Below the pieces are notes generated by a model. That model made no database searches and was not told the origin of the DNA. It saw only the letters and a program-made list of their open reading frames with translations. A stretch of DNA of 64,000 bases from an uncultured bacterium (GTDB lineage Bacteria > Babelota > Babeliae > Babelales > RVW-14): NCBI GenBank assembly GCA_903825355.1, contig CAIKAH010000001.1, positions 2,540-66,539 of the forward strand. The letters run 5' to 3'. This document shows positions 7,879 through 44,772 of the stretch, in pieces; position 1 is the stretch's first letter, and each line of letters starts with the position of its first letter. Position numbers and translations under genes: made by a program.

Positions 7879-8682
7879 ATGATTGCTGTCATTGCCGGAA
7901 CCGGCTCTTTACCTACAGAGGCATGCAAAAAATTAGTACAAGAAGGCAAAGCTTTTTTTGTCGTATGCCTGTTCCCTGAAGAAAATCAGCAACAGTTGCA
8001 GGCCGTCATCGGGCATGGGATTGAGCTGGTAGCTGAAAAATGTTTTAAAGCTGGTACTATCCTACGCAAGCTCCAAGAGCGAAAAACAAAACAGGTATTG
8101 TTTATTGGCAAAGTTGATAAAAATAACCTTCTTAAGCAACTTAAACTAGATTGGCTAGCCCTCAAAATAATGGGTTCGCTTGTTACTCGTGGCGACAAAG
8201 ATGTAATGGAAGCGCTGCTCAAAGAGCTTGCCAGTAATGGTATAAGCACCATCCGCCAAGATGAAGTTTTAGATGGGTTGCTCGTCAAACCAGGCATACT
8301 CTGTGGAGAACTTACCAAAACATTAGAAGCGAGCATTCAACTGGGAATCAAAACAGCGCTCACCATATCAAAAGCTGATATTGGACAAACCGTGGTGGTA
8401 AAAGATGCTATGGTGCTTGCCGTAGAAGCAATAGAAGGAACCGACGCCTGCATTCAGCGAGGACTGGCATTAGGCAAAGAAGGGGTAGTCATCTGCAAGG
8501 CTGCGCACCAAGAACAAAATAAATCATATGATTTGCCAACGCTAGGCCCAAAATCACTTGCAAGCTTTAAACCAGGTGATGTAGCAGCTATCGCTTGGGT
8601 TGCCTCTCATACCTTAATTGCTGAAAAAGAGCAGTTTATTGCTCAAGCCAAAGAACTTGAGATTATGCTAATAGCAGTTTAA
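7879..8682 (+). CDS. lpxI: UDP-2,3-diacylglucosamine hydrolase LpxI (DUF1009 family)
   Basis: Has the MIAVIAGTGSLP N-terminus, FIGKVDK, and the C-terminal DIGQTVVVKDAMVLAVEAIEGTDACIQRG and KSYDLPTLGPKSL motifs typical of LpxI. It sits in an lpx gene context. Confidence 0.85.
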   Translation: MIAVIAGTGSLPTEACKKLVQEGKAFFVVCLFPEENQQQLQAVIGHGIELVAEKCFKAGTILRKLQERKTKQVLFIGKVDKNNLLKQLKLDWLALKIMGSLVTRGDKDVMEALLKELASNGISTIRQDEVLDGLLVKPGILCGELTKTLEASIQLGIKTALTISKADIGQTVVVKDAMVLAVEAIEGTDACIQRGLALGKEGVVICKAAHQEQNKSYDLPTLGPKSLASFKPGDVAAIAWVASHTLIAEKEQFIAQAKELEIMLIAV

Positions 8683-8697
8683 TTTTTAGATATCCCG

Positions 8698-8741
8698 ATA
8701 GCAAAAATACCCAAGTTTTTAGGCTAGGGTATTTTTGCTAT
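8698..8741. terminator. Hairpin between convergent lpxI and the ABC-F gene (possible bidirectional terminator)
   Basis: ATAGCAAAAATACCC (8698-8712) pairs perfectly with GGGTATTTTTGCTAT (8727-8741) across a 14-nt loop. The stem is AT-rich and there is no clean U-tract. Confidence 0.4.
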
Positions 8742-10785: not shown

Positions 10786-13080
10786 CTATGCTGCCGCCTG
10801 CCCTTGTGGGCCACTAGGCTTTCTAAAGAACCATTCAGCCATTTTATAGCCGGCCTGACGACCGACAAAACCACTCAGGCTGATAAGTATACCATGTCCC
10901 ACTTTATCGACAAGAAGCGGTACAAACTCAACCAAGTCATCTTTGTGTTTTTTATAGTCCTCAAGACAGCTCATGGTTTGTTTGTAATCAAAAATTCCCA
11001 TCATGAAGAAGTAGTCAAGAAACGCAATCATCATTGCATCATTAATTTTTTGATCATCGTGTAGATCAGGAGAGATCATACCTACTGATCGCATAAAATC
11101 AATCGCTGCACGGCGTTGCTGGCTACCCGCCGTATGCATAACATCTTGGATCATTGCTTGCAGCATGTTCACTACAATTTCTTTGCTATAACCAAGCAAC
11201 ATAACTTCGTCTTCTGAGAACAGCCATGATGCTACTTTCATTCCCACCTTGCTTAATCCAGAAGCTAGAGCCTCAATATTTGCAGCAGCCCCTTTACGAG
11301 CCCAATGGCGACCTATTGAGCCAAAGACATAATAAAGCGCACTGTACTCTAGAAATAAGTTTTGATTTTGCTTAAAGAAAGCCTCATGTGTTACCCCGCC
11401 ATTTGGATACATTTTAGCGTACGCAGTCATCATATCAAAGAAGTACCAGCGATTGTTATAACCGTGTATATCAAAATCGTTAAAGCGCGCGATATAGTCA
11501 TTGATTACCGGATGGCGCTGCATTAAGCACCAAGTAATACAAACATCCATAAATTCAGAAAGAATTCGCGGACTTACTACGCCCATTGTTGCATTTTCAA
11601 TATCATACATACGTTCACGGCTTACATGGTTATAAATAGCTGACTCCATCATGCCGCTGACATATCCTTGCAAGCTAAAAATACCAAAACGAATAATTGC
11701 ACGGTAAACATCAGCCGTTAGCGCCTTATTGCGTGGAGTTCCATCTTCTTCAAAGGTAAAAACATCTTTAAAATTACCTAAATTATACCAAGCAAAAGCA
11801 CATACAAAACGCATACCAAAACGCGCCAACTGAGACATTTGCATGGCATACATAGTTGGCTTATTAAAAAGCTGCGCACCAGCAAATAAGGTCATCCCGT
11901 GTTTTTGCAACTTAGTAAGAACGCCCCCTAGAGCAGCGATTCCCACTCCTTCGTTCAATGGATCGACAAAGTGAGCCAGAGAACTATCACCAATAATAAG
12001 CTGCGTAATGTCACGACCAGCAGAATCAAAATGATGCTGAGCCATCGCAGCAAAAGCTAGCCCTGAACGCAAGCAAACATCTTGCACCCACACGCTACTT
12101 GGGGATCGACCATGAGTAAGGTGTGCAAAACTAAAGCCATTAAGCATGAAATATGGCTCAAACACGTCATACACATGCGACATGGTGTAAAGCACCCAAC
12201 TAATATCAATAGTAGCCTTGGCAGCAGCCTTTTGCACATTGATCATTGTGTGCAAGTGCTTAGTAACTTGTTTGGTCCAATACTCCAGTGCCTTGTGCTG
12301 TACAATATCGCCTTTTGCTATTGTTTCAGTCAAATGCACCAATACATTGCTAGTTTTATGAAGAACTTTTTCCAACTCTTTAATTGCTGGCGCGTTAATA
12401 TTGTAACAAGCACGCGCTGCAGCAGCATAATTTTTAGCATGCATTTTTGTCAAAATGTCGCGCAAAGTTATTGTTTGTTCGCTCTCTGCTTTTTCAAGCA
12501 ATTTTAGCAATCCTTTAAGATCAGCGTGCCCCCAAACAGCTGTAGCCGCAACAGCCTTATCTTGCGCATTATTACTGATATTACTAAAAAATAGTTCTTG
12601 AAAGGAGCCATCACGCAACGCATCTTCTAGCTTATGCAGCGCTTGTTTACACTCATCAGTTTGTTTTGGTTGGTTAGCAATAGTATAAGCCAACATCCCA
12701 ATAGTATTTTGCAAACGCAAATTGTTTGCCACCACAGAAACACCTTGTAGGGCCTCTTCCACTAAGGCACGGGCATCAGCAGGCAATACTTTGAGATGTT
12801 GCTCACGAATTTCTTGTTGCTGACGAATCGCATCAGCTTTAAGCCGCTCAATCAATGCTTGAAAATCATTCTGTAATTCTATAGGGTTTGAACCAATTAA
12901 CGATAGAGCTTGAATATCCCCTTCAGTGCGTATTGGCTGATCATCAAAATCTTTGAATAACGCTAGTTCTTTTGTAACTTCTTTACTCATTTCGATTGGT
13001 TGAGGAGTGCCTACTGCATGAACTTGAGTAAACAAAACAAATGCCGTTACCAGTACGCGTCTAAATTGTGCGATTGTCAT
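10786..13080 (-). CDS. Large signal-peptide protein, unknown function (tandem paralog 1)
   Basis: 764-aa ORF with a signal-like N-terminus (MTIAQFRRVLVTAFVLFTQVHAVG). It is alignable end to end with the 13296..15410 product, for example VDPLNEGVGIAALGGVLTKLQK / VDPLNEGIGIFALGGILGKLQK and YYVFGSIGRHWARKGAAA / YYVFGSVGRYWARKGAAA. Confidence 0.8.
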   Translation of the reverse strand: MTIAQFRRVLVTAFVLFTQVHAVGTPQPIEMSKEVTKELALFKDFDDQPIRTEGDIQALSLIGSNPIELQNDFQALIERLKADAIRQQQEIREQHLKVLPADARALVEEALQGVSVVANNLRLQNTIGMLAYTIANQPKQTDECKQALHKLEDALRDGSFQELFFSNISNNAQDKAVAATAVWGHADLKGLLKLLEKAESEQTITLRDILTKMHAKNYAAAARACYNINAPAIKELEKVLHKTSNVLVHLTETIAKGDIVQHKALEYWTKQVTKHLHTMINVQKAAAKATIDISWVLYTMSHVYDVFEPYFMLNGFSFAHLTHGRSPSSVWVQDVCLRSGLAFAAMAQHHFDSAGRDITQLIIGDSSLAHFVDPLNEGVGIAALGGVLTKLQKHGMTLFAGAQLFNKPTMYAMQMSQLARFGMRFVCAFAWYNLGNFKDVFTFEEDGTPRNKALTADVYRAIIRFGIFSLQGYVSGMMESAIYNHVSRERMYDIENATMGVVSPRILSEFMDVCITWCLMQRHPVINDYIARFNDFDIHGYNNRWYFFDMMTAYAKMYPNGGVTHEAFFKQNQNLFLEYSALYYVFGSIGRHWARKGAAANIEALASGLSKVGMKVASWLFSEDEVMLLGYSKEIVVNMLQAMIQDVMHTAGSQQRRAAIDFMRSVGMISPDLHDDQKINDAMMIAFLDYFFMMGIFDYKQTMSCLEDYKKHKDDLVEFVPLLVDKVGHGILISLSGFVGRQAGYKMAEWFFRKPSGPQGQAAA

Positions 13081-13295: not shown

Positions 13296-15392
13296 TTATT
13301 GCGACTGAATGGGAGAGATAGGCTCCCTAAAAAAATACTCAGCAGCTTTATAGCCAACATGACGGCCCAGAAATCCACTAAGGCTAATAATAAAAGCATT
13401 TCCTACTGAGCAAAGAAAACGAGGAATAAAAATATCCATGTCTTCTTTGTATTCTTCGTACAAGGTTATGCATGCAGCTGCCTGATGATAATCAAAGACC
13501 CCAAAAAAGAGAAAATAATCGGTAAACAACTTAATAATCATCTCGTTGATTTCTGCATCCTCAGGCAACTGAGCAGGCAAACACCCTTTTGATTGTAAAA
13601 AAGCAATCGCTTGGTAACGCAACGCGCCGCCTGTCGTCATCACATCGTGGAGGACAAAGCCCAACAGACCAGTAATTTGTTCTTTACTCAGTAGTATTTG
13701 ATCGGCATATTTTTTTGGCAACACATAGGATGCCATTGAACTACCTACACTTCGCGCATACGCCCCAATAGTCTCACCATAAGCAGCTGCACCCTTGCGT
13801 GCCCAATAACGCCCCACAGAACCAAAGACATAATAAAGTGTAGAATACTCATAAAATCGCTGCTGGTTATAAGCCAAAAATTGTTCAAATGCTGCTTCAT
13901 CTTTAGGATCTGCATATTTGAACATGTATCGCAAATACCAGGCATGTTTGTACTGATGAATATCAGCATCGCTAAATTTAACAATATTTTTTTCTACCCA
14001 CTCGTGCCGCCGCATAAGGCAACCAGTAACACACATATCAACAAATTCGCTGACCAGCTGAGGAGCAATAATACCCATGGTGGCATTTTCAATCTGATAT
14101 AGCCTTTCAGCACTTACTTTATCACAAATTAACTTCTCCACCGAGCCGCTCACATGTGCTTCTAACTCTAACAAACCATAGCGTAAAATAGAACGATAGA
14201 GCAATGCCGTTACTGCGTAATTTTCAACTTTTTTTGTTTTAAGTAATGGTACTAAGTTATACCACGCAAAAGCACACCCAAAGCGCAAAGCAAACCGCTC
14301 AACAGGAGATAGTGGCGGACCAAACATGGTTGGCACAGCGAAAGCATGCCCTATGGTACCCACGGCGTTCATCGTCTTTTGTAACTTACCCAATATGCCG
14401 CCCAAGGCAAAAATACCTATCCCTTCATTGAGAGGGTCAACTTGCTGCACCAACGATCCATCGCCCATAATAAGCAAGGTAATATCGTTCTTTGCAGTCT
14501 CAATATCCTGTTGCTTCATAGCCATATAAGCAATACTTGTACGCATAAATACGTCTTGCCAAAGAGGCGCATGCAACATATTTTCAAATGAAAACTCTCC
14601 ATACAGGTGAAAATAAGGTTGTAAGATATCGTAGAAATAAGAAAGCGCTAACAGCAATCGCTGTAAATCAAGATTAGCCATAGTGCCTGCTTTTTTCATT
14701 TTACGCACTGTTTGCAGATGTTTATTGATCTGCTTGGTCCAAAAAATAAAAGCATCACGATTAAGTAATTCTTTTTTGTTTCGTGCAGTCAAAGCAGCAG
14801 CAAGACAGTTGCTCGTTGTTTTAAGTTTTTGCTCAAGTGCAGCGAGCGAAGATGCATGAACTGCATAAACGGCACGTGCTGCAGTAGCATAATCGCTTGC
14901 CTGTAGCTTTTCTAAAATAGCTGCTAAGATTGCTGCTGAGTTGCCAGCTGCTTTCTGCAACAGTGGTAAGAGCTCATCCAACTCCTTTTTTCCCCACGCG
15001 GGAACTTCTTGAACAGGAGCACACATATTTCCAAAAAAGAAATGACCAACGGAACCATCACGGGTTGCACGCTCAAGTAAAGTAAGGGCATCGTGCAGCG
15101 TCTGGGAACTGCTATTCGTGAGTTGTTTTTTAATATCGCTAATCAGCATGTCTAGCGTAGCAGGAAGCCTGAACAGATCACTACATTCCGTAAATGCAGT
15201 AAGAGACTCTTCAACGAGCGCACGAAGTGATGTGGGCAAAGCGTTAAAATGTTTTTCACGAAGCATTTTTTGGCGCGCAACAATAGGAGCAAAAATATCA
15301 TCAGTGCTTGGCAATGTTATTGCAGCACAGGAAAGACTAGTATGAACAATAATCGCACATAACCACATGCGCACTAAGGAAATAATTTGCAT
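13296..15392 (-). CDS. Large signal-peptide protein, unknown function (tandem paralog 2)
   Basis: The track ORF is 13296..15410. The likely start is the internal ATG at 15392 (MQIISLVRMWLCAIIVHTSLSCAA). It shares conserved blocks with the 10786..13080 product along its whole length, including the C-terminal ISLSGF(V/L)GR..GYK.AE.FFR.P. Confidence 0.8.
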   Translation of the reverse strand: MQIISLVRMWLCAIIVHTSLSCAAITLPSTDDIFAPIVARQKMLREKHFNALPTSLRALVEESLTAFTECSDLFRLPATLDMLISDIKKQLTNSSSQTLHDALTLLERATRDGSVGHFFFGNMCAPVQEVPAWGKKELDELLPLLQKAAGNSAAILAAILEKLQASDYATAARAVYAVHASSLAALEQKLKTTSNCLAAALTARNKKELLNRDAFIFWTKQINKHLQTVRKMKKAGTMANLDLQRLLLALSYFYDILQPYFHLYGEFSFENMLHAPLWQDVFMRTSIAYMAMKQQDIETAKNDITLLIMGDGSLVQQVDPLNEGIGIFALGGILGKLQKTMNAVGTIGHAFAVPTMFGPPLSPVERFALRFGCAFAWYNLVPLLKTKKVENYAVTALLYRSILRYGLLELEAHVSGSVEKLICDKVSAERLYQIENATMGIIAPQLVSEFVDMCVTGCLMRRHEWVEKNIVKFSDADIHQYKHAWYLRYMFKYADPKDEAAFEQFLAYNQQRFYEYSTLYYVFGSVGRYWARKGAAAYGETIGAYARSVGSSMASYVLPKKYADQILLSKEQITGLLGFVLHDVMTTGGALRYQAIAFLQSKGCLPAQLPEDAEINEMIIKLFTDYFLFFGVFDYHQAAACITLYEEYKEDMDIFIPRFLCSVGNAFIISLSGFLGRHVGYKAAEYFFREPISPIQSQ

Positions 15393-15557
15393 AAAACCCC
15401 AACCACCCACATAAACTCATTAGATACCCGTTAGCCGCTCCTCTTTTGGAATAAAATGTAGAGAGGCAAAATATAGTATGGCAGGGGTTATTGGAACGTC
15501 AAACGGGTGGGGAAACTACCACTTTTGAGCAACGACTAATCATACACCGGCCGCAGC

Positions 15558-16682
15558 CTAGTTTCTATCTGCATTAATTCGCTCATAGCGTGCACAATTA
15601 GCGATAAAACCAATCATGCACCAGCTCGCAATAAGTGCTGTCCCACCATAACTAATAAAAGGCAGTCCCAACCCTTTAGTCGGTAGCAAACCACAAGATA
15701 CCATAAGATTGATCAGCGCTTGAATCGTTAGCAATATAATAAAACCAAGCGAGCTAAAAAAGCCAAATCGCTCACGAAATAAAAGCACAATACGCATACC
15801 AAAAAATAAAAATGCTGCGTAGAGTAGAATAAGCCCTAACGACCCAATAAACCCTATTTCCTCGGCAATAATAGGAAAGATAAAATCTGTATGTTGCATA
15901 GGAAGATAGAAAAATTTCTGTTTAGAATTGGCAATCCCAACGCCCCACATTTTGCCGTTGCCAATAGCAATAAGTGACTGGATAATTTGAAATCCTTTTC
16001 CTTGGGGATCGGCCCACGGGTTCAAGAAAATTAAAATACGGCTCAAGCGGTATGACTTGGAAAAAATGAGATAGACAATCGCAGGGCAAGCAAGGAGCGC
16101 TGTAGTAAGTAAATAGCGCATATTACATTCTGCAACAAAGAAAAGGACTAACGCAGTGGAAAAAAGCGTAATGACCGAACCAAAATCAGGTTGTTTAAGC
16201 AAGAGCGCAAAAGATACGCCCAACACAAATAAAAACGGCAAATAGGTATAGAAGAATGATTTAATGCGATATTGCTTTTTTTCTAAAAAATATCCCATGT
16301 ACAATATAAGAAATATTTTAAGCAGCTCGCTGGGCTGCAAACTAATAAAACCTAGATGTAGCCAGCGATTTGCCCCATGCATTTTTATTCCTAGCCCAGG
16401 AACAAATGTTAACCCCATCAAAGCAAGCGAGCCAATAAACAGCATGGGCGCATAGTGTTTGAGTTTTTCGTACGGGACGAGTGCAAATACCAAAAAGCCT
16501 ATAACTGCCAGCAATGTATAAGCAGCTTGTTTCTTTAAAAAAAAGAAATCACTTCCACATTTTTCTAATGCAAGAATGGAGCTTGAGGAATACACAAAGA
16601 CAAGGCCAACTAACGTAAGCAACGTTACTATGCCCATAAGTGTTTGTACATCTGCACGTAAACGACTTGTCGGTAATGCCAT
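15558..16682 (-). CDS. ftsW: SEDS-family peptidoglycan glycosyltransferase FtsW
   Basis: Polytopic membrane protein of 374 aa with family motifs (QPSELLK, LPMQHTDFIF, GLGLPFISYGGTALI). It lies directly downstream of murD, as in dcw clusters. Confidence 0.85.
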   Translation of the reverse strand: MALPTSRLRADVQTLMGIVTLLTLVGLVFVYSSSSILALEKCGSDFFFLKKQAAYTLLAVIGFLVFALVPYEKLKHYAPMLFIGSLALMGLTFVPGLGIKMHGANRWLHLGFISLQPSELLKIFLILYMGYFLEKKQYRIKSFFYTYLPFLFVLGVSFALLLKQPDFGSVITLFSTALVLFFVAECNMRYLLTTALLACPAIVYLIFSKSYRLSRILIFLNPWADPQGKGFQIIQSLIAIGNGKMWGVGIANSKQKFFYLPMQHTDFIFPIIAEEIGFIGSLGLILLYAAFLFFGMRIVLLFRERFGFFSSLGFIILLTIQALINLMVSCGLLPTKGLGLPFISYGGTALIASWCMIGFIANCARYERINADRN

Positions 16683-20602: not shown

Positions 20603-21232
20603 ATGAACACTTTTTCATACCTAATGCTAGTAGTCGCGCTGGCAGTTTCAAACTGTCTTGCAAACGAAACAATAACCGATACTGTATCGCCTTATGACAA
20701 AAGCAAAGCAATTTTCAATGCAAATGTCACTACTATTACAGGGATTATAAATTCGCTTAAAGATTCACTGGCAAATGCAAAAAAGCAGTATGACAAAATC
20801 GTTTACGATAAAAATACCGCAACAAATAATGTAAAAAAATATATGCAAGCAATCGCAATTTTAGAGCAGCAGCTTGCTGAAACGCAGACCAATCTTAAAA
20901 ACGCTACTACAACTGTTATGATGTGTGAATCAAAAATAGGAAATATCAATGCTACGCTGGGTCAAGCGGTAGATGGACAGTCGACCAGTATCGCCACAAG
21001 CATGACGGCTATTTTAACAGCAAGTGATCAGATGAACACCCTGGCAGCCAATTCAACAACTGCTGACAAGCACAAATTAGAGGCTGGAAATGCTAAGAAA
21101 CAAGCACAAAGCTTGCAAAACTCCTTAGAAAATCTAAAAAAAGATATTAGCTCAGCTAGAATGCAATATGCTGCCGCAGGAACACAAGCATCAGCACCGG
21201 TACTAACACAGCAAACAGCCCAACAAAATTAG
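20603..21232 (+). CDS. Secreted N/T/A/Q-rich helical protein, unknown function
   Basis: 209-aa ORF with a signal-like N-terminus (MNTFSYLMLVVALAVSNCLA) and low-complexity helical sequence. Its stop overlaps the convergent ligase stop by 4 nt. Confidence 0.7.
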   Translation: MNTFSYLMLVVALAVSNCLANETITDTVSPYDKSKAIFNANVTTITGIINSLKDSLANAKKQYDKIVYDKNTATNNVKKYMQAIAILEQQLAETQTNLKNATTTVMMCESKIGNINATLGQAVDGQSTSIATSMTAILTASDQMNTLAANSTTADKHKLEAGNAKKQAQSLQNSLENLKKDISSARMQYAAAGTQASAPVLTQQTAQQN

Positions 21233-23001
21233 TTTTTTTTGTTTTTAGTTTTTTTTTCAAACTGCAGATGATACAAGTTCTGTACCTCAGCAGACGTGGT
21301 GGCTGCTGTTGCCGATTTGTCTGGACGATAACCCATGAACCGTGGAAAGCGTAACGCGTAACCAAGTTTTTCAGTAGTTGCATGCGCTGTATGCGAAGGA
21401 GAAAGCGTAATTTCATCTGCTCGGATCATACAAACAATCTGTGGATCAACCCAAACATCAGGAAACAACTCTTTGTTACAGACCACATTGTGTGGCAAGC
21501 GTGACATTTTTAGCCCATCACAGGCTTTTTTTACTTCCCGCCATTCAGCATCAGTAAAACCAGTACCAATTTTTGCTACTGTTTCAAACATATCTTTTTT
21601 AGGATTGTAAACACCAACAAGCAAAGCGCCTATGCCAAATTGTGCTCGCTTGCCCTGACCTGCGTAATAACCTAAAATAACACAATCTAGCGTATCATCT
21701 AACGAGCCAGTCTCTTCGCGTTTCAGCTTAATCCAGTTAAAGTTACGCTTGCCTGGTTGATATAAAGCATCAGGGCGTTTAACAACTAAGCCTTCTAGTC
21801 CGAGAGTTACCGTCTCTTCAAAATAGTTAAAAAGCTCTTCTCCGTCCTGCATAACACGCTCATCAATTACTTTAATAATTTCATGTTGCTGCACAGCCTT
21901 AGTAGCACATATCTTTAACATAATGTCTCGACGCTCTTCATGCGTTTTGCTGAGCAAGGATGTTCCATTTAGAAAAAGTATATCAAACAGGTACAACTTA
22001 AGCGGAAATACTTCAGCTACTTGATCAATATTATGTTTACGCTTACGTTTTACAGTCTCTTGGAATGGCAAAAAATCACCAGTTTGTGGATTAATGCAAA
22101 TTGCTTCACCCTCAACAATTAATTGCTCCACATCAAGCTCATATAGCGATGCAACAAGATCAGGAAACATAGCTGACATGTCTAGTAAATTGCGTGAAAA
22201 AAACCGTACAACCTTATGTTTTGCACTGTTATCAAGATGCACTTGCAATCGAAAACCATCAAGCTTAGGTTGCGCAACACAAGTACCCAATTTTTTTATA
22301 ATCGCTGCGGCATCAGCAAGACGTTCTGCAGCTGAAGGACGAATGGGAATGCCAGGCTTAATTGCCATAGCATGAATACCAGCAATACCAGCCGATTTAA
22401 GTGTTGCAATAATCAAGCCAATATCAGCACAAATATTATATGCTTGCTCTAAATCGCCACGCAATGATTTGTTACCAACCGACATCCAGGAAAATGCATC
22501 CAGCAAGGTCATATCAGAAAAACCAAGTCGCAAATTACCTTCTATAATCCGTAGAACATATTTTGCTGAAATCGGATCCAGCGCTCCTAACAATTTTAAT
22601 ACTGCTTGCTCACGATTTTCTTGTGAACCAATACCGCTCATTTCAAGTAATTTTTGCAGACTTCGCTCAATATCGATTACAGAAAGAACAGAGGTCTCTA
22701 CACCCCACGTATACTGCGCCACCACAGAACCCAAGTCCCCAACTTTTTTCAATTCATGCTTAGCAGCGTCAACTGAAGTACCAAGCAATTGAGCAACAAC
22801 ATGTATCAAGCTTTTTTCAGCTAAATTAAATTGTGCGCCCAGATAAGGGGGCTTGAGCGAGCCGAGCGAAACATAAGCAATAACGCTAGCCTCAACAGCC
22901 GTTGCCTGCCCAAACAATTCAGCAAGCACAACTGTAATAGCAGTACGTGCACTCTCTTCTTCTATCTGGTCAAATATACGAGCAACATGAGAAAATTTCA
23001 T
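21229..23001 (-). CDS. ATP-dependent DNA ligase (Lig1/archaeal-type with N-terminal DNA-binding domain)
   Basis: Motif I is KLDGFR (QPKLDGFRLQVH), with EGEAI (III), EGLVVK (IV) and WIKLK (V). There is a roughly 240-aa N-terminal DBD-like region and an OB-fold C-terminus. The start overlaps the plsY stop (ATGA). Confidence 0.85.
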   Translation of the reverse strand: MKFSHVARIFDQIEEESARTAITVVLAELFGQATAVEASVIAYVSLGSLKPPYLGAQFNLAEKSLIHVVAQLLGTSVDAAKHELKKVGDLGSVVAQYTWGVETSVLSVIDIERSLQKLLEMSGIGSQENREQAVLKLLGALDPISAKYVLRIIEGNLRLGFSDMTLLDAFSWMSVGNKSLRGDLEQAYNICADIGLIIATLKSAGIAGIHAMAIKPGIPIRPSAAERLADAAAIIKKLGTCVAQPKLDGFRLQVHLDNSAKHKVVRFFSRNLLDMSAMFPDLVASLYELDVEQLIVEGEAICINPQTGDFLPFQETVKRKRKHNIDQVAEVFPLKLYLFDILFLNGTSLLSKTHEERRDIMLKICATKAVQQHEIIKVIDERVMQDGEELFNYFEETVTLGLEGLVVKRPDALYQPGKRNFNWIKLKREETGSLDDTLDCVILGYYAGQGKRAQFGIGALLVGVYNPKKDMFETVAKIGTGFTDAEWREVKKACDGLKMSRLPHNVVCNKELFPDVWVDPQIVCMIRADEITLSPSHTAHATTEKLGYALRFPRFMGYRPDKSATAATTSAEVQNLYHLQFEKKTKNKKN

Positions 23002-23760: not shown

Positions 23761-25404
23761 CTAAATTTTGAACTGTTTAATGCTCGTACAATCAAAACAG
23801 AATTTGTACAATGATTTAAGAAACAGCACACCTGACAAAAGTGTTGCAACAATACCAGCCATTAGTGTTACCGCAAATCCTTTGATCGCTGGACCACCAT
23901 ACCAGAACAGCACAATACCGGTCAGGAACGTTGTAATATTTGAGTCTAAGATCACAGGCATCGCATCAGAGAATCCATCAAGCATCGCTTTTTTAAAAGG
24001 GACACCAATTTTCAGCTCGTCTTTGACGCGTTCATAAATCAATATTGAAGCGTCAATTGCCATACCGATGGTCAGTACAATACCCGCAATACCAGGTAAT
24101 GTCAAGGTCGCTTTGAAGTAAGACAAAAATAATAACGTCAAAAAGATGTTTACTAACAATGTAATAATTGCAAAGAGCCCTGGGATTTTATAGTAAATCA
24201 AGCTAAAAAAGAATAAAAGCGCAAGAGCAACCATACAAGCCAAAACACCTTTGTAAATCGAATCTTGCCCCAGCGATGCACCAACACGGTTTTCTTGCTC
24301 CATTTTCAATGGCGCCTGCAGTGACCCTGATTTGAGAATAATAGAAAGGTCCAGTGCTTCTTGTACGCTTGCAATGTGATTGATAACACCAGAACCACCC
24401 GTAATAGCTGTCTGAATTTGTGGATAGGTGTACATAACATCGTCGATGATAATACCCAAATTACGCTTGATATTATTTGAAGTCAGCTCGCCAAATTCAC
24501 GACCGCCCTCACTATCAAGTTTAAAGCTTACCATTGGCTTATTGTACTCATCATGGTCTACCTTAGCAGCAATTAAATGGTCGCCGGTTAAATCAGGATA
24601 AGCTGAAACCAAGAAAAATTGACCATGGCCTTCTTCGTCCGTACCTTTTCTACCAGGCACAATCATCTTATCTGAAGGCAATTCCCCGTCATATTTATCT
24701 AATAAGGCTTCGCGAGAACCAGCCATATCTTCAATAATTTTAAACTCAAGCAACGCTGTTTTAGTAATTACCGATTTAACGTGCTCAGGATCGTCAATAC
24801 CTGGCAGCTGAATGACAATCTGATGGTCACCATGCTGCTGTACGATAATACCTTCAACGCCATACCCACCTAAACGATTGGTAAGTACGTTTACGCCTTG
24901 CTCTACAACACCAAGGCGCGTGGCTTGCTCCACTTCTGGTGCAAACGTTGCACGTAATACACCATCACTAAGCTTTAAGCGTAATGAATTTGTTTTGGAT
25001 TCAGTAAGCGCAGCATAGGCAGCTTTACCCTCAGCCTCAGAAGCAAAGGTCATATTTAGACCAGTATCAACTACTTCTTTTTTAACAGGCAAAGCAAGAT
25101 TTTTTGCTCTAAGGATATTTTCAATCCCACGGCCTTCGCCTAGTAATTTGATTTCGAGCGCTTTTTCAATTTCTACGGTGTATACCAGATACGTACCGCC
25201 TTCAAGATCAATACCTTTTTTAATATGGCTAAATTTCAATGCATTGTAATAGTGGCGAGCTGTTCCCATCAAACCTGGCTGACGCGCTTGCTTAAGGGCT
25301 TTTTGATCTAGCGAAAGCATAAAATAGCAACCAGCAACGATAACGCCTACCCACAACATAAGTGGTGAAACCAGTGCTCTGCTTAATTTAGATTGTGTTT
25401 GCAT
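23761..25404 (-). CDS. secD: Protein translocase subunit SecD
   Basis: N-terminal TM segment, large periplasmic domain (GIDLEGGTYLVY...), and a C-terminal six-TM bundle with GIAGIVLTIGMAIDASILIYERVKDE. I prefer the ATG at 25404, preceded by GAAGGAGAG; the track ORF runs to 25473. No adjacent secF. Confidence 0.85.
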   Translation of the reverse strand: MQTQSKLSRALVSPLMLWVGVIVAGCYFMLSLDQKALKQARQPGLMGTARHYYNALKFSHIKKGIDLEGGTYLVYTVEIEKALEIKLLGEGRGIENILRAKNLALPVKKEVVDTGLNMTFASEAEGKAAYAALTESKTNSLRLKLSDGVLRATFAPEVEQATRLGVVEQGVNVLTNRLGGYGVEGIIVQQHGDHQIVIQLPGIDDPEHVKSVITKTALLEFKIIEDMAGSREALLDKYDGELPSDKMIVPGRKGTDEEGHGQFFLVSAYPDLTGDHLIAAKVDHDEYNKPMVSFKLDSEGGREFGELTSNNIKRNLGIIIDDVMYTYPQIQTAITGGSGVINHIASVQEALDLSIILKSGSLQAPLKMEQENRVGASLGQDSIYKGVLACMVALALLFFFSLIYYKIPGLFAIITLLVNIFLTLLFLSYFKATLTLPGIAGIVLTIGMAIDASILIYERVKDELKIGVPFKKAMLDGFSDAMPVILDSNITTFLTGIVLFWYGGPAIKGFAVTLMAGIVATLLSGVLFLKSLYKFCFDCTSIKQFKI

Positions 25405-25548
25405 ACTGAACTCTCCTTCAGACTCCAACAATTTCGATTCTTTTTTAGATTCTCTGCTTAGACAAGTCATCATATTGTAGCCGCCAGAGCCACGACCAAT
25501 GGCCTGCCATTTGTAGCTACAAACCCTTCAAGGTAAAGGGTATAAGAA

Positions 25549-25635
25549 TGGTGCCGAGGAAAAGACTCGAACTTTCATGGGTTTTACCCCGCTGCCCCCT
25601 TAAAGCAGTGCGTCTACCAATTTCGCCACCTCGGC
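25549..25635 (-). tRNA. tRNA-Leu (type II, long variable arm); the canonical 7-nt loop gives anticodon AAG
   Basis: The reverse complement is GCCGAGG-TG-GCG-AAATTGGTAGA-CGC-A-CTGCT-TTAAGGG-GGCAG-(CGGGGTAAAACCCAT)-GAAAG-TTCGAGT-CTTTT-CCTCGGC-A-CCA. It is a Leu tRNA under either reading; the only alternative is a 9-nt loop that would contain TAA. Confidence 0.8.
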
Positions 25636-25861
25636 ACATCATGTACATGTCAATACGAGTAAAAGACGCACAAAATGTACCACAAACGTTTTACCTTAGC
25701 AACCACTTTTTGCGCTTTTTTTCATTATTTTAATAAAAAACAACCTTATATCGTGCATTTTTCAGCTATTTAGCCATTTTTTAATGCGTATAAAACATGC
25801 TATGCTTTTAAGTAATTACAATTACGATATTTAATTGCGCATATTTTGGAAGAGATAAAAG

Positions 25862-27568
25862 ATGAATATATATACTATTTTTACCCTACTGATGTTGTTA
25901 TGTATTCCAACCAACACTACCTTTGCAAGCTCTAAAAAAAAACGCCCCCTAGAAGAGGATACTCAAAACATTATCGATCTAAACAGCGACGATGAACCAA
26001 GAGAAATAACAAAGCCAGGTACTCCACCACCCATCGTACTTACGGCAGCGGGGCAGACAGTAGAAAGTTTTTTAAATAATCTTTTTTTTACTCGCAAAGA
26101 ATTTCGCTGTACCTCCACAGAAGTTGAAACATTTCAACAACAATGGGCTTTGCTAACGTCACGAGACCAAACTCATCTCAGAACATGTAATGATGGCAAG
26201 TTCAACGACACCATTGAAGAATTCTTAAAGTACAAAAAACGGCGTAAAAAAACACAGAATCAGGAACAGGGTCTATTAAACCTGTTAGAAAAAATTAATC
26301 CTACTAAGATCACGCTTGCTGATGTTACAGCATTTACCACAATATGGAACACATGGACGAAAAAAAACCAGCAATCATTTTTGGAAACGCATGAGAAAGA
26401 AATGGTGCTCATAGCACAACTAACATCAATGATTCCCGAAGACGAGGGCTTTTCTGATGACGACGCCGCTCCTCTTGTTGGAACCTATCTTCCTGCTATT
26501 CCTGCTGAAGGAAGTCTAGAGCCGCGCCCTCTAACCCGGGGTATTGAGAACCCTCACGTCATGTGTTTTATGAATGCAACACTACAGGAAATACTCGCCA
26601 GCCCAAGACAAGTTGCTTATCTCAGTATGTTGAAGCGTGAAGCTGTATTGACGCACGCAGCAGGTGATGGCAGAAGGACACCCCTTCTACAGGCTTTTTT
26701 TGATTATAGGGACAATTATTTTTTAACGGCTAGCCATGCGGTAGTTTCAGCAAGCGATCCTGTATATACAGCTTTTGCTCATGCCGTCCATACACTCCTT
26801 GATCCTAAACAGTTAAAACAACACGATCCGCATGAATTCTACACGCAGCTCTTTTCCGCTTTGCATGACCATGACACAGATACACCACGGGCCAATCAGC
26901 TACTACCAACACGCATAGAAACAACCAATACTTGTGCACGGAATAACCACACAAGAACTAAAAACAAGCCCTCATACGTTGTCATGCTAGACGGGTTAAA
27001 TAGTTATCCTGACCAAGATAAACCAATAACTATTACTAGGCTTCTCAATGACTATCAAGCACTTATAGCCAGAACTGACCAAATTGAATGTTCCATGTGC
27101 GGTTGCGAAAATGATGCCTGCCCAAAAAAATTTGCAGAGGAATGCCCATGTAAAGGTGATTTAGCAAAAGTATATAAGAAAAGTCATGACACCATGAAAT
27201 ATACCATACACCCTGAAAATCATTTAGTAATCTATGTTCAACGTTCTAATGCAGACGGAAGCAAATGCAAAAAGCCCATAATTGCTGAAAAATCTATTAC
27301 TGTTGATGGCAAACGTTTTCAGCTTATGTCGGTACTTTTTCATGGGGGCGAAAAAGCTGGTAGCGGCCACTGGACTACTCTAAGACAAGAAATATTATTT
27401 AACCCTAGAAACGGGGACTATCGCAATACCAATCATTGGATCTATTGCAATGACGCTCGCCTATATAATACGCCAGTCGACTTTCCCGTTACTATAACAT
27501 CAAAAAAAATGAGCCCTCGCCCAGGCAAACCTGATGCAACTATGTTCTTTTATGACCGCGTTGCTTAA
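25862..27568 (+). CDS. Secreted ubiquitin-specific-protease-like cysteine peptidase (C19/USP family, eukaryote-like)
   Basis: Cys box GIENPHVMCFMNATLQ (Cys235 at nt 26564-26566). His box GGEKAGSGHWTTL plus WIYCNDARLY. Cys-rich insert CSMCGCENDACPKKFAEECPC. Signal-like N-terminus MNIYTIFTLLMLLCIPTNTTFA. Confidence 0.75.
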   Translation: MNIYTIFTLLMLLCIPTNTTFASSKKKRPLEEDTQNIIDLNSDDEPREITKPGTPPPIVLTAAGQTVESFLNNLFFTRKEFRCTSTEVETFQQQWALLTSRDQTHLRTCNDGKFNDTIEEFLKYKKRRKKTQNQEQGLLNLLEKINPTKITLADVTAFTTIWNTWTKKNQQSFLETHEKEMVLIAQLTSMIPEDEGFSDDDAAPLVGTYLPAIPAEGSLEPRPLTRGIENPHVMCFMNATLQEILASPRQVAYLSMLKREAVLTHAAGDGRRTPLLQAFFDYRDNYFLTASHAVVSASDPVYTAFAHAVHTLLDPKQLKQHDPHEFYTQLFSALHDHDTDTPRANQLLPTRIETTNTCARNNHTRTKNKPSYVVMLDGLNSYPDQDKPITITRLLNDYQALIARTDQIECSMCGCENDACPKKFAEECPCKGDLAKVYKKSHDTMKYTIHPENHLVIYVQRSNADGSKCKKPIIAEKSITVDGKRFQLMSVLFHGGEKAGSGHWTTLRQEILFNPRNGDYRNTNHWIYCNDARLYNTPVDFPVTITSKKMSPRPGKPDATMFFYDRVA

Positions 27569-27600
27569 GTCTACATAAAGCGATTCATCTACTCCAAACT

Positions 27601-27638
27601 AAAAAGGGCCGTCATACGAAAGTATGACGGCCCTTTTT
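27601..27638. terminator. Bidirectional rho-independent terminator between the USP-like gene and htpX
   Basis: AAAAA-GGGCCGTCATAC-GAAA-GTATGACGGCCC-TTTTT: a perfect 12-bp GC-rich stem flanked by A and T runs. Confidence 0.85.
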
Positions 27639-27653
27639 AGTTTTTTCTAACTT

Positions 27654-33251: not shown

Positions 33252-34634
33252 CTAAAAATGGACTGCTAATGAGCAGCCAAGCGAACCTGCAATCATATCA
33301 GTTGCCCAACTATACTTACCAAGAATGGGTAGACTATATTCAACGCTAGCCAATACGCCGATTGCTGACCCAAACATTTCTGCTGTATTTACCTGTACAG
33401 CGGCACGCAACACATGCGTTTCCCATCCCTGTAGACGGGTGTCACTATCAGCATAATGATTTGGCAACACCAGCTCATAATTTCCACCAGCAAGCGCTTT
33501 AGCTTGCTCAGCCGCAATTTTGGTCGATAAATAATTTCCATCACGCACGTCATAGGTTGTTCGCTCCTGGCATGTGAATGTGTAACCAACTAAGGCACGC
33601 AGCCCTTTGATCAATTTATTAACGCCTACGTAGCCACCAATATCCCAGAGGGAACCATAGTCTTCTGAAACACGCACCTTTTCCAAAACAATCCAACCAT
33701 TTTGATTTAAATCGGTTTTAAGACGAGCGTTGCGACGCGCATGAAAAAACACACTGCTTCCTGCTTGAAGCCCAACAGTAAGATAATCAAATACATTTGC
33801 TTCAAGGGCACCCCGACCGATACAGCCTATGTGTCCATTGTGCCCACGAGGCAGATCAAAAACTACATTTGCATCTTTGCCGCTGGCAGCCGGCAGACTA
33901 AAACCAAATTGCATATAGCCAGCTACTTCGGTTACAAGCGGAGCAAGACGAGCTGAATAGCCTTCCCAGCCAACAGAAAGCACGGGATCACCAATATCCC
34001 ACCCTCGACGCACATCAGTAATAGGCTTGATGCCATGCTCTTTTAAAATCAGCGGTAGAAAGGTGGTAATAAAATGTACCATATTTTGGCCAAGTGGATC
34101 AGCAATCCCCACATTAGTTGCCTTAATACCACTGATAGTAAATTTACTAAAAGGTATAAACGCCTGCAGATACAAACCATACCAGAAGGGCACCTGCGCC
34201 TGCACCGAAACGTCAGTGATACTAAAATTACCGCCATATACTACTTTGCCATCATTGACGCCAAGCGTTTTGGCTGTAACCGCTGCATCAATCAGTTTAT
34301 TGCGCCATAAACCAGTAGTTGGATGCCAAAAACGATGAGTGATAGGCATTTTCGCTGCATCTACATTATCTAAATTACTCCCCAACCGTAGCAAATCAAA
34401 CGCCCCATTAGCATTAAAAAGGGGTGTTTTATTTTCATGCCCATCAAAGGCTGTGTGCGTACTGCCGCTGGCTGCTCTGAGTGAAACTCTTGCCGGTGCT
34501 TTTTTTACAAAATGGTGCGGCAAATTTGACATAAGGCCTGCACGATAAAATAGTTGCGCATCCCCCGCTAAAACCCAAGAAACTATTGTAAAATTCACTG
34601 CCGCAAGCAGCATTAAACGTTTCATGCTATTCAT
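33252..34634 (-). CDS. Outer-membrane beta-barrel protein (porin-like), unknown specificity
   Basis: 460 aa with a signal peptide (MNSMKRLMLLAAVNFTIVSWVLAG), an alternating amphipathic strand pattern, aromatic-rich sequence, and a terminal ...SLAVHF ending in Phe, typical of OMP beta-signals. Confidence 0.7.
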   Translation of the reverse strand: MNSMKRLMLLAAVNFTIVSWVLAGDAQLFYRAGLMSNLPHHFVKKAPARVSLRAASGSTHTAFDGHENKTPLFNANGAFDLLRLGSNLDNVDAAKMPITHRFWHPTTGLWRNKLIDAAVTAKTLGVNDGKVVYGGNFSITDVSVQAQVPFWYGLYLQAFIPFSKFTISGIKATNVGIADPLGQNMVHFITTFLPLILKEHGIKPITDVRRGWDIGDPVLSVGWEGYSARLAPLVTEVAGYMQFGFSLPAASGKDANVVFDLPRGHNGHIGCIGRGALEANVFDYLTVGLQAGSSVFFHARRNARLKTDLNQNGWIVLEKVRVSEDYGSLWDIGGYVGVNKLIKGLRALVGYTFTCQERTTYDVRDGNYLSTKIAAEQAKALAGGNYELVLPNHYADSDTRLQGWETHVLRAAVQVNTAEMFGSAIGVLASVEYSLPILGKYSWATDMIAGSLGCSLAVHF

Positions 34635-35593: not shown

Positions 35594-36514
35594 ATGCTTT
35601 ATCGATTAACATTACTATTAATAATTACCAACTCGCCACTTGTTCCATCAGCTCACCTTGTAGACTATTCAGACTCAGAAGACAGCGAAAACGAAACAAC
35701 TACCGCTACTCCCCAAAGCAAACCAAGCACAAGTCCCAATCGAAGCCCCAGATCAAGGATAACAAGTCCGCTACAAAAAACACCACCTTCTCATTTAGCT
35801 ATCACGACAAAAATCACCCCTAATAAACGCATAATCAAGACACAACTACAAAAAGCCGAACGCAAAAATCGCATAGCGTTTAGCGAAAAAACAGCTAATT
35901 TACTCAAAGAAGCTATGGTACTTGATCCTGAACACCTAGAAGGTAAGTTATACCGTCAAGGAATTCTTGTTTTTCACGAACGTGTATTGCAGCGATTTGC
36001 ACACAATCTACTACAGTATATTGAACAGGAACGAAAGAATAATTCTTTTACGCTTGAAGATGAGCATTGTCTTCTTACTAGAGAAAGCGAACACGCTTTG
36101 TCTAGCGAAATTATCATTAATGCTATTCTTATGGGAGAATGCTCATTTCAACTAGGTAAAAACAATCAAATAGAACTAGTGATTGACGCCAAAGTGGTGT
36201 GCAATAGCAATGATTCAATAGTTAAATGTATATTGAACGATCGCACACACGTAAAACTTGTTTTTGGGTCTCCTCGTCAGGGAACAACCAACAAGTATCC
36301 TTTTGTTCTGTATCATGCTATGTTCCATAAACCTTACTATTCTGCACGTTATCATCAATCAAGCGTAGATAAGGCAGAGGCTTTTCTCGATACCAAGCTA
36401 TATGAAGGAAAAGAAATACTTTGCTTTGATCTCACCTGTAAAAAACGGGCGCAGCTTCCATTAATGAATGAACTCTTTGCTACAATCACGCCAACCTTAT
36501 TAGATTCAAAATAA
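35594..36514 (+). CDS. Secreted protein, unknown function (tandem paralog a)
   Basis: 306 aa with a hydrophobic N-terminus and an S/P/T-rich segment, then a globular region. It is homologous to the next gene (GILVFHERVLQRFAHNLLQYI / GILLTEQRVAYNYAYNLRNRI and PFVLYHAMF / PFLLFHAMV). Confidence 0.75.
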   Translation: MLYRLTLLLIITNSPLVPSAHLVDYSDSEDSENETTTATPQSKPSTSPNRSPRSRITSPLQKTPPSHLAITTKITPNKRIIKTQLQKAERKNRIAFSEKTANLLKEAMVLDPEHLEGKLYRQGILVFHERVLQRFAHNLLQYIEQERKNNSFTLEDEHCLLTRESEHALSSEIIINAILMGECSFQLGKNNQIELVIDAKVVCNSNDSIVKCILNDRTHVKLVFGSPRQGTTNKYPFVLYHAMFHKPYYSARYHQSSVDKAEAFLDTKLYEGKEILCFDLTCKKRAQLPLMNELFATITPTLLDSK

Positions 36515-44025: not shown

Positions 44026-44772
44026 ATGATGAGTGGTCCCAATCTTCGCTTACTAAAAATACTATTTTTGGTGTTAACATTAGTCTTACCAAACGGCCTT
44101 CTAGGGGCAGATGCTGTTACACAAATTAATGCCATCTTTAATACTCATATGAGCTACCCTGGAGGCATTAGCGCTTTTACAACTGAGGCTCCTGCACTTT
44201 CAGCTCCAACAGATATTGCTACACTTACCACCCTCTGGAATGCCATTAATGCTGCAGCAAAAGCAACTCCACCAGCTGATGCAACTCAACTCAGCAATAC
44301 ACAACAGGCCTTCTGGAATGGTATTATTTTACCAGCCACAGTACTCCCTCCTTTTGATGCCACGATAGCAGAATATGTTGCATTGTATACTGCAGTTTAT
44401 AATGCATGCAAATCTTTATGTCAGCCTTCCTGCTCATTAATCACTGGGCCTGTCAGCGATAGTAGCACAGATGGAACAGGTAGCATGCAATACCAACTTG
44501 ATAGTTTTATAACGAGCCTTGATCTTCCTGCATCGATTACGAGTCTAGCACCAGCTACGGCGCCAAGCCCTATAAGCGAACCTAGAACTCCTGCTCCATC
44601 TAAACCAGCAACAAAAAAAACAGTAAAAAAATTACAAAAAACTATTAGAAAACCTGCTAATGCACCAGTTCCTTCTTCAGAGAAAACAATAGCCCCAACA
44701 CATAAACATGCTAAACAGGCTCCCAAAGTTATAAAAGCTGTAGTTGCTAATCCAAAAAGTATGAAAAAATAG
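44026..44772 (+). CDS. Secreted protein with a Pro/Ala/Lys-rich basic C-terminal tail, unknown function
   Basis: Signal-like N-terminus (LLKILFLVLTLVLPNGLLGA). The C-terminal tail PAPSKPATKKTVKKLQKTIRKPANAPVP...KHAKQAPKVIKAVVANPKSMKK is strongly basic. Confidence 0.7.
   Translation: MMSGPNLRLLKILFLVLTLVLPNGLLGADAVTQINAIFNTHMSYPGGISAFTTEAPALSAPTDIATLTTLWNAINAAAKATPPADATQLSNTQQAFWNGIILPATVLPPFDATIAEYVALYTAVYNACKSLCQPSCSLITGPVSDSSTDGTGSMQYQLDSFITSLDLPASITSLAPATAPSPISEPRTPAPSKPATKKTVKKLQKTIRKPANAPVPSSEKTIAPTHKHAKQAPKVIKAVVANPKSMKK

Follow-up and report, generated by a model that had tools for sequence, protein, structure and literature searches.

A predicted secreted protein of the ubiquitin-specific protease family encoded in a conserved chromosomal slot of an uncultured Dependentiae bacterium

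The gene and its chromosomal setting

The stretch of DNA analyzed here comprises 64,000 nucleotides of an uncultured bacterium (assembly GCA_903825355.1, contig CAIKAH010000001.1, positions 2,540 to 66,539; referred to below as the window) and carries a gene at 25862-27568 whose product, judged both by its sequence and by its predicted structure, is a genuine member of the ubiquitin-specific proteases (USPs; MEROPS family C19). The genome is a metagenome-assembled genome (MAG) of Candidatus Dependentiae (TM6, UASB124-like). The SecD and HtpX proteins encoded next to the USP gene cluster with proteins named 'Candidatus Dependentiae bacterium', as does P0002, the closest relative of the USP protein (76% identity), and a scan of the GTDB species representatives located two USP relatives in contigs from MAGs named 'candidate division TM6 bacterium UASB124'. 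Homologous proteins are given here as P numbers and their loci as L numbers. The GC content of the window is about 41%, and numerous open reading frames (ORFs) in it are signal-like at the N-terminus and lack a Pfam family.

The USP gene encodes, in this order, a signal peptide, a linker, an N-terminal helical region and the USP catalytic domain. The features of the gene and its immediate surroundings are the following (pLDDT, the predicted local distance difference test, is the confidence measure of the AlphaFold2 model):

25549-25635, minus strand: tRNA-Leu(aag), divergent from the USP gene (ARAGORN; Rfam 46.4 bits)
25848-25854, plus strand: Shine-Dalgarno-like GGAAGAG, 7 nucleotides 5' of the ATG, found by reading the sequence
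25862-27568, plus strand: USP gene, ATG start, 568 codons plus stop (ORF list)
25862-25927, plus strand: predicted Sec-type signal peptide, residues 1-22, with a likely signal peptidase I site TFA/SS
25928-26059, plus strand: disordered acidic, Pro-rich linker, residues 23-66 (pLDDT 28-43)
26060-26428, plus strand: all-helical N-terminal region, residues 67-189 (pLDDT 60-89 in the full-length model)
26540-27553, plus strand: USP catalytic domain (peptidase C19) spanning residues 227-564 and made up of Thumb, Fingers and Palm
27598-27641, no strand assigned: hairpin with a 20-bp stem flanked by an A-run and a T-run (terminator scan and sequence)

The neighbors of the USP gene are SecD, tRNA-Leu, HtpX, a MerR-family regulator, LepA and ArgS. 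The gene is transcribed alone, and both adjacent genes face the opposite way, as seen from the ORF list and the terminator scan; the hairpin at 27598-27641 is common to the convergent USP and htpX genes and could terminate transcription in both directions. An earlier note, prepared from the letters of this DNA alone, had described a stand-alone gene between a tRNA-Leu and a bidirectional terminator, and this layout is borne out. A purine-rich element (GGAAGAG, GGAAGG or GGGGG) stands at an equal distance from the start codon in five of five orthologous loci, and a consensus promoter scan 5' of the USP gene found no sigma-70-like promoter.

The catalytic domain

The Pfam profile UCH (PF00443) matches residues 227-564 along practically its entire length (profile positions 2-254 of 254) with 49.3 bits against a cut-off of 23.9 (E = 6.4e-13), and all relatives pass this cut-off as well. 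The Pfam search did not report UCH_1 (PF13423) for the window protein, and a search of the NCBIfam collection with the USP protein returned nothing meaningful. The sequence motifs, whose positions were recomputed from the sequence, lie where the earlier note had placed them:

26540-26587, plus strand: Cys box GIENPHVMCFMNATLQ, residues 227-242
26819-26839, plus strand: QHDPHEF, residues 320-326, counterpart of the USP motif 'QQDAxEF'
27359-27379, plus strand: His box GSGHWTT, residues 500-506, with the predicted catalytic His503 at 27368-27370
27437-27454, plus strand: WIYCND, residues 526-531
27449-27454, plus strand: Asn530-Asp531, third catalytic position and following Asp, invariant in the family

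The putative catalytic Cys235 is encoded by TGT at 26564-26566, and a helix of the model begins at this very residue; Asn230, five residues upstream, occupies the oxyanion-hole position. Within QHDPHEF, Glu325 is invariant in all 19 aligned USPs and throughout the bacterial family, and it probably binds the ubiquitin tail; the legend to Fig. 1 of the study on TssM describes a highly conserved Glu of USPs that is important for binding (PMC10719079). The residue following the catalytic His is regarded as an aromatic gatekeeper (PMC10643670), a position that is usually held by Tyr or Phe and is occupied by Trp504 in the window protein. G502 and H503 are invariant in seven of seven bacterial relatives and W504 is found in six of them; L014 has the canonical H-Y. 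Altogether, C235, F236, N238, A239, E325, H494, G496, G502, H503, N530 and D531 are invariant in the seven relatives, and C235, E325, H503, N530 and D531 have stayed unchanged at overall identities within the bacterial family of only 22-40%.

A search of the PDB sequences with the single protein was barely informative (USP30 at E = 0.06), whereas a profile built solely from the seven bacterial relatives reached USP30 at E = 3.4e-14. In this comparison the Cys box falls on GNTCFMNS, the His box on SGHF and the ND pair on the S-D of WLWVSD, so that C235, H503 and N530 coincide with catalytic residues of USP30, and both zinc-ligand positions align. An AlphaFold2 model calculated with 19 sequences has a mean pLDDT of 72.7, with most of the catalytic domain between 75 and 95. 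When this model was compared with the PDB by Foldseek, the best 50 matches were without exception USP catalytic domains (USP18, USP2, USP30, USP1, USP36 and others), with E values from 1.9e-16 to 5e-14 and target-normalized TM-scores mostly between 0.60 and 0.75; its best structural matches in BFVD are USPs of giant viruses. The predicted fold is the canonical Thumb-Palm-Fingers USP domain with full Fingers, whose strands are modelled at residues 350-376, 402-410 and 439-450. Together, the PF00443 match and the modelled fold confirm the C19 identity that the earlier note had derived from its motifs, which are no chance resemblance, and the alignment to USP30 favors Cys235, His503 and Asn530 as the equivalent of the USP catalytic triad.

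The Fingers and their cysteine residues

The Cys-rich insert that the earlier note had already recognized (residues 410-430, nucleotides 27089-27151) lies between the Cys and His boxes and can now be assigned to the Fingers:

26933-26950, plus strand: C358-x4-H363, located in the first hairpin of the Fingers, where canonical USPs have their first pair of zinc ligands
27089-27151, plus strand: Cys-rich fingertip C410-xx-C413-x-C415-x4-C420-x7-C428-x-C430, comprising the second CxxC pair and four extra Cys residues

A CxxC...CxxC ribbon is present in most, but not all, USPs, and zinc-free variants exist among the eukaryotic enzymes. In the family profile C358-x4-H363 aligns to CKHC of USP30, and a C-x(3,4)-H pattern is kept in P0001, P0002, P0016, P0017 and P0023; L014 has CxxC instead. 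The fingertip consists of CSMCGC (residues 410-415) and CPKKFAEECPC (residues 420-430), and its six-Cys pattern recurs in the 33%-identical P0016 (ECSACGCATCNNTEICRC). P0017 and P0023 possess the fingertip CxxC alone, and L014 contains a canonical CSAC...CDIC. A fingertip enlarged to eight potential zinc ligands (C358, H363 and the six fingertip Cys residues) is shared by the window protein, its closest orthologue and P0016, and with eight such ligands, two zinc sites are possible. P0015 (L005 10001-11593) has neither equivalents of C358 and H363 nor a CxxC, retains the catalytic residues and is, from its sequence, a natural zinc-free USP variant.

The N-terminus and the lineage-specific helical region

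The protein begins with MNIYTIFTLLMLLCIPTNTTFA/SS, in which a hydrophobic core (mean Kyte-Doolittle value of 2.39 over 12 residues) is followed by T-F-A. Eight of eight family members start with a hydrophobic segment that carries a small-residue cleavage motif, and the 'NT..A' of the c-region recurs in orthologues (TNTTFA/SS, QNTVA/SS, SNTLYA/A). The signal-like N-terminus reported in the earlier note is thus conserved in every relative, unlike the adjoining linker, which cannot be aligned. Many other ORFs of the window have similar signal-like N-termini. A reading of the N-terminus as a lipobox was rejected, given that Cys14 is not conserved.

A regular-expression search located a basic cluster, KKKR (residues 25-28), at the opening of the linker, and the all-helical region that follows contains a second one, KKRRKK (residues 125-130). 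This helical region, for which no Pfam family was found, is present only in the window protein and in the 76%-identical P0002, and is absent or unalignable in P0015, P0016, P0017 and P0023. Modelled alone, the N-terminal region reaches a pLDDT of 51.7 and is unreliable. An internal duplication within it was considered and discarded as not significant, as 67 of 1000 shuffled sequences score as high.

Relatives, conserved position and origin of the gene

Word-indexed searches, run with the protein as well as with the family alignment, yielded the 76% orthologue and two weak matches only. An exhaustive profile search of 1.84 billion representative sequences found just 15 matches at E <= 1e-3, and the USP lineage is therefore very divergent. 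Five of these matches (P0002, P0015, P0016, P0017, P0023) form a bacterial family with signal-like N-termini. Other matches score 35-47 bits; P0018 comes from a fungus, P0019 is named USP10 by its source, and P0027 has an added N-terminal Cys/His-rich region that, read by eye, resembles a UBP-type zinc finger. P0021 (L013 1050-2024; GCA_964446935.1), a compact USP of 324 amino acids with a signal-like N-terminus and a much stronger UCH match (117.6 bits), groups with the non-family matches in a neighbor-joining (NJ) tree. It is encoded on a bacterial contig beside dnaN, a recF-like gene and an ankyrin gene, so that USPs with a signal-like N-terminus are not confined to a single bacterial lineage.

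The gene order around the window gene is DNA ligase, PlsY, SecD, tRNA-Leu, [USP], HtpX, MerR, LepA, ArgS. The USP slot is common to five genomes, those of the window, P0002, P0015, P0016 and L014 6883-8109, so that intact orthologues are present in four genomes besides that of the window; these five genomes were assembled independently from different samples. The same tRNA-Leu lies between SecD and USP in L001, L005, L006 and L014. More distant Babeliales keep the ArgS-LepA-MerR-HtpX block, and other genes follow HtpX. In L015, an ankyrin-repeat protein (6870-7841, minus strand) is encoded directly after htpX and replaces USP, SecD and tRNA-Leu; in L016 two ORFs without a Pfam family (7072-8705) do the same. 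To judge from these gene orders, the junction after htpX resembles a variable 'effector slot' that adjoins a conserved ArgS-LepA-MerR-HtpX block.

Because the gene occupies the same slot in five genomes, while distant Babeliales carry other genes there, its distribution indicates that it was acquired by, or placed in, the ancestor of this subclade and has been vertically inherited since; any transfer from a eukaryote would be old. The GC content of the USP gene (0.411) and that of its third codon positions (GC3, 0.343) are the same as those of its neighbors. A simple NJ tree groups the syntenic orthologues at 93.5% bootstrap and the entire bacterial family at 74%. With respect to the host-to-bacterium transfer envisaged in the earlier note, the phylogeny thus recovers the bacterial clade, and neither the profile search nor the NJ tree identifies a eukaryotic or viral donor at such divergence.

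We also considered a role of the USP gene in a bacterial ubiquitin-like conjugation or anti-phage operon of the Bil or CBASS Cap2/Cap3 type. This was rejected: PADLOC found no match to anti-phage defense systems, and no E1, E2 or ubiquitin-like (Ubl) genes are adjacent. A tblastn search of plasmids for the USP gene gave no match.

Rate of evolution

Identities of the USP protein and of three proteins encoded nearby to their counterparts in three of the related loci differ strongly:

USP: 76% (L001), 37% (L005), 33% (L006)
SecD: 98% (L001), 91% (L005), 83% (L006)
LepA: 99% (L001), 94% (L005), 91% (L006)
HtpX: 96% (L001), 87% (L005), 78% (L006)

Between the two closest genomes, the USP gene has a rate of non-synonymous substitution (dN) of 0.146 and a ratio of non-synonymous to synonymous substitution (dN/dS) of 0.32, as compared with dN values of 0.004-0.02 and dN/dS values of 0.02-0.04 for SecD, HtpX, LepA and ArgS. 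Non-synonymous change is about ten times faster in the USP gene than in its housekeeping neighbors. A dN/dS of 0.32 implies that the gene is under selection, and it is therefore no pseudogene; by analogy, its rate pattern would be typical of a host-interaction protein.

Features of the relatives that point to the host cell

Three relatives of the window protein, encoded at L014 6883-8109 (minus strand), L010 476-2170 (P0017) and L008 8001-9425 (P0023), end with TSWCSIQ*, GGWCVIC* and DRWCTIS*, respectively. These W-C-x-I-x ends resemble CaaX-type motifs and could be farnesylated by host enzymes. CaaX motifs can be used by host prenyltransferases only, as for AnkB of Legionella (PMC2916131), and the tails of the relatives therefore point to an action inside the eukaryotic cytosol.

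At the orthologous locus of the sister genome, L005, extra genes lie between htpX and the MerR-family gene. One of them, two genes away from the USP locus (15237-16139, plus strand), encodes a protein of 300 amino acids with a zf-RING_2 match of 31.5 bits (cut-off 27.3) and a weak ankyrin match. This RING-plus-ankyrin protein, encoded beside the USP locus, is a possible mimic of an E3 ligase and suggests that this lineage both adds and removes host ubiquitin marks. The first gene of L008 likewise has a weak zf-RING_2 match.

Within the USP family, the branch that contains the window gene has no CaaX anchor, and the window protein and its closest orthologue have added a helical module with two SV40-like basic clusters (KKKR and KKRRKK). 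One may speculate, and we give this idea only a small chance of being correct, that the USP was retargeted in this way from host membranes, possibly to the nucleus, where it might act on protist chromatin or nuclear proteins as a Sec/type II-secreted 'nucleomodulin' deubiquitinase, and that the slot after htpX might be a site of fast effector turnover in a host arms race.

Proposed function

Members of the Dependentiae live as obligate intracellular parasites or symbionts of protists and possess genomes of 1.0-1.5 Mb (PMC4776705, PMC6561590), and a host-targeting role is therefore the natural reading of a USP in such a bacterium. We consider it likely, from the conserved sequence features and the model, that the window gene encodes a catalytically competent USP-family cysteine isopeptidase of an intracellular Dependentiae bacterium, which is secreted and strips ubiquitin from host targets or from targets on the bacterial surface. 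The protein would be made with a Sec signal peptide, cross the inner membrane and be cleaved after Ala22; it might then leave the cell through type II secretion or in outer-membrane vesicles. Inside the host, the Fingers would hold the globular part of ubiquitin; zinc at C358, H363, C410 and C413 probably stabilizes the Fingers, with the four extra Cys residues. The acidic QHDPHEF segment and Trp504 would steer the LRLRGG tail into the cleft, and the Cys235-His503-Asn530 triad would cut the (iso)peptide bond after Gly76. Removal of ubiquitin from host proteins, or from the bacterium or its compartment, would blunt ubiquitin-dependent degradation and autophagy. We infer the secretion route, ubiquitin as the substrate, the binding of zinc and the cellular target in this scheme.

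Several findings reported for the phylum are compatible with such a route of export. Type II secretion is considered core to the TM6 phylum, where two copies of gspD occur (PMC4776705), and in Babela it was the sole secretion system detected (PMC4378268). Signal peptides are predicted on 44% of the coding sequences of Dependentiae, and vesicle budding has been observed in Chromulinavorax (PMC6561590). Type II substrates of Legionella are reported to arrive in the host cytosol (PMC5478897).

A number of points weigh against the proposed function. The equivalence of the triad was drawn from an alignment, and catalysis is deduced from sequences and models for all family members. The first zinc pair is C-x4-H and not CxxC, and the fingertip is modelled with a pLDDT of about 55. 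The signal peptide was recognized by heuristic criteria (a hydrophobic core and a small-residue cleavage motif), and its n-region carries no positive charge. A Sec signal alone takes a protein only as far as the periplasm, and no type II secretion (Gsp) genes were recognized among the ORFs scanned in the 64-kb window. The CaaX-like tail is absent from the window protein, and also from its three closest orthologues. Finally, ubiquitin and NEDD8 or other GG-ended modifiers are indistinguishable as substrates by sequence.

Alternative explanations

Among eukaryotic USP-fold enzymes, USP18 acts on ISG15, USPL1 on SUMO and USP36 on Fubi. Could the window protein, in the same way, be a protease for a protist ubiquitin-like modifier (NEDD8, a SUMO-like protein or another GG-ended Ubl) rather than for ubiquitin? 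We regard this as rather unlikely. Complexes of USP18 and of USP36 with Fubi are among the best structural matches, but the ubiquitin enzymes USP2, USP30 and USP1 rank equally well in Foldseek. The extreme divergence of the family, with its mere 15 matches at E <= 1e-3 in 1.84 billion sequences, and the Trp in place of a Tyr or Phe gatekeeper would fit an unusual substrate, yet the acidic QxDxxEF motif with the invariant Glu325, which is typical of enzymes that bind the Arg-rich LRLRGG tail, has been kept. Simkania SnUSP2 reacts with an ISG15 probe, too (PMC10643670); nevertheless, the characterized bacterial USP-type enzymes all prefer ubiquitin (PMC10643670, PMC10719079).

A second alternative concerns the location of the protein. 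If the N-terminus were an uncleaved membrane anchor or a periplasmic signal, the protease might act on proteins of the bacterial envelope; the limited reach of a Sec signal, the uncharged n-region and the position of the gene between the envelope and quality-control genes secD and htpX would all agree with this, but in our view it is quite improbable. The modelled fold is a complete ubiquitin-binding USP domain with Fingers, its ubiquitin-tail motif is conserved, and the CaaX-type tails of the relatives would be meaningless in the periplasm. The genes nearby encode no bacterial protein of ubiquitin fold that could be a substrate. Moreover, the USP gene is transcribed alone and opposite to both neighbors, and in a more distant relative the slot is filled by an ankyrin-repeat protein.

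It is very unlikely that the protein is a catalytically dead pseudo-USP or scaffold that only binds ubiquitin or ubiquitinated proteins. Its sequence diverges very fast, P0015 has lost the zinc ligands, and a precedent of sorts exists in Simkania SnUSP3, which labels with probes but leaves chains uncut (PMC10643670). Against this stands the family-wide retention, at 22-40% identity, of the Cys, the His, the Asn/Asp, the oxyanion Asn and the gatekeeper position, which is hard to explain without selection for catalysis.

The lone plus-strand gene beside a tRNA and a strong terminator, and its membership of a family dominated by eukaryotes, might suggest a recent genomic island at the tRNA-Leu or a eukaryotic contaminant or chimera of the metagenome assembly, but we give these readings next to no credence and reject them by synteny and composition: the same slot and tRNA are present in five independently assembled genomes from different samples, GC and GC3 are those of the neighbors, the Shine-Dalgarno-like element is conserved, the genes form a bacterial clade of their own in the simple NJ tree (74% and 93.5% bootstrap), and no plasmid match and no anti-phage family were found. 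Likewise, the tRNA-Leu was rejected as an island boundary, as it is a conserved neighbor across the five genomes. From the earlier note's proposal of a horizontally acquired host-targeting effector, the host-targeting part is retained as the natural reading in view of the intracellular lifestyle; the layout of tRNA, lone gene and terminator cannot be upheld as a sign of a recent island.

Comparison with known bacterial and eukaryotic USPs

Bacterial USP-type effectors are already known as a class, from predictions in Babela (PMC4378268) and from the biochemically characterized enzymes TssM (PMC10719079) and SnUSP1-3 (PMC10643670). In the genome of the Dependentiae member Babela massiliensis, Pagnier et al. 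reported in 2015 three predicted secreted C19 ubiquitin hydrolases (PMC4378268), which belong to the same phylum and peptidase family as the window USP and are likewise predicted to be secreted. They co-occur with RING, F-box and ankyrin proteins, as the orthologous USP locus in L005 adjoins a RING-plus-ankyrin gene. The Babela hydrolases are known from genome annotation only, and are likened to the window USP by description; the window USP differs from these entries by its UASB124-like lineage, its specific N-terminal helical region and its six-Cys fingertip.

SnUSP1-3 of Simkania negevensis (Chlamydiae) also stem from an amoeba-associated intracellular bacterium, and SnUSP1 and SnUSP2 are active, linkage-promiscuous deubiquitinases (PMC10643670). 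They belong to a phylum other than that of the window USP and were probably acquired independently. All three are large proteins and contain hydrophobic regions, and a type III signal is predicted for SnUSP2 only (PMC10643670); the window USP, in contrast, begins with a predicted classical Sec signal peptide, uses Trp as its gatekeeper and carries additional Cys residues at the fingertip, and its activity is predicted.

TssM of Burkholderia pseudomallei and B. mallei is a USP-type effector that is exported via Sec and type II secretion and acts on host ubiquitin conjugates; in enzymes of this type, the Fingers are deleted, a Littlefinger loop is present instead, and an N-terminal Ig-like domain precedes the catalytic domain (PMC10719079). 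The window USP, as modelled, possesses Fingers strands, together with the zinc-ligand positions, and its N-terminal region is all-helical. TssM, which is also an esterase, was neither among the PDB sequence matches at E <= 1e-3 nor among the best 50 structural matches, and a fingerless enzyme of the TssM type was rejected in view of the Fingers strands in the model.

Eukaryotic USPs (USP30, USP2, USP18, USP14) and those of giant viruses share with the window USP the fold, the Cys box, QQDxxEF, the zinc-ribbon positions, the His box and the ND pair, but are only 10-18% identical to it in structural alignments. In contrast to them, the window USP is encoded on a bacterial chromosome with a Shine-Dalgarno-like element and an intrinsic terminator, carries a signal peptide, and has H-W for H-Y/F, C-x4-H as the first pair and four extra fingertip Cys residues.

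What appears to be new is a UASB124-lineage family with a fixed chromosomal slot and an extreme rate of divergence; also apparently new, as far as the sequences indicate, are the Trp gatekeeper, the enlarged Cys fingertip, the lineage-specific helical region and the CaaX-like tails of the relatives. Dependentiae are widespread, almost uncultured parasites of protists whose tools for host manipulation are known from annotation lists only. The locus offers a concrete and testable family of putative deubiquitinases with full Fingers, a Sec signal, a fixed slot and rapid divergence. It adds a further phylum to the few that are known to have USP-type effectors (TssM, SnUSP1-3), and supports the idea that a Sec/type II route can deliver ubiquitin-directed effectors. 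It is no new kind of system; its value lies in a defined biochemical candidate and a clean case of effector-like rates.

Intergenic sequences and other ORFs of the window

The spacer that separates the tRNA-Leu from the USP gene contains a block of some 85 nucleotides (25647-25730) that is nearly invariant in the five genomes and better conserved than the adjacent protein genes. It matches no Rfam family, and its folding energy is ordinary (z = -0.2 and -1.0 on the two strands). The minus strand carries TTGCTA-17 nt-TACATT after an A-rich run; the block probably serves the divergent tRNA-Leu as promoter, UP element and leader, with a small RNA of a new kind as an alternative of lower standing. 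The mechanically called SecD ORF (23761-25473, minus strand) has 570 amino acids, as compared with 547 in the calls for its orthologues; translation probably begins at an internal Met that lies 23 codons further downstream, and the spacer between SecD and the tRNA-Leu would then be wider.

Several large ORFs of the window are signal-like at the N-terminus and have no Pfam family, and are candidates for secreted proteins from their sequences:

535-2610, minus strand
2805-5207, plus strand
10786-13080, minus strand
13296-15410, minus strand
33252-34634, minus strand
35594-36514, plus strand: N-terminus laid out like that of the USP, with a signal followed by an acidic Ser/Asp/Glu-rich linker
44026-44772, plus strand
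47853-49386, minus strand
52535-54122, minus strand

The ORF at 54125-58678 (minus strand) encodes a protein of 1517 amino acids with a signal-like N-terminus and an unusual architecture, in which PPDK_N, the ATP-binding module of pyruvate phosphate dikinase, is the sole recognizable domain (residues 195-415). Synteny with L001 and L005 identifies the 590-codon ORF at 21229-23001 (minus strand) as an ATP-dependent DNA ligase; for the orthologues in these two loci, a precomputed table gives the domains DNA_ligase_A_N, DNA_ligase_A_M and DNA_ligase_A_C, a set that is more typical of eukaryotic and archaeal ligases.

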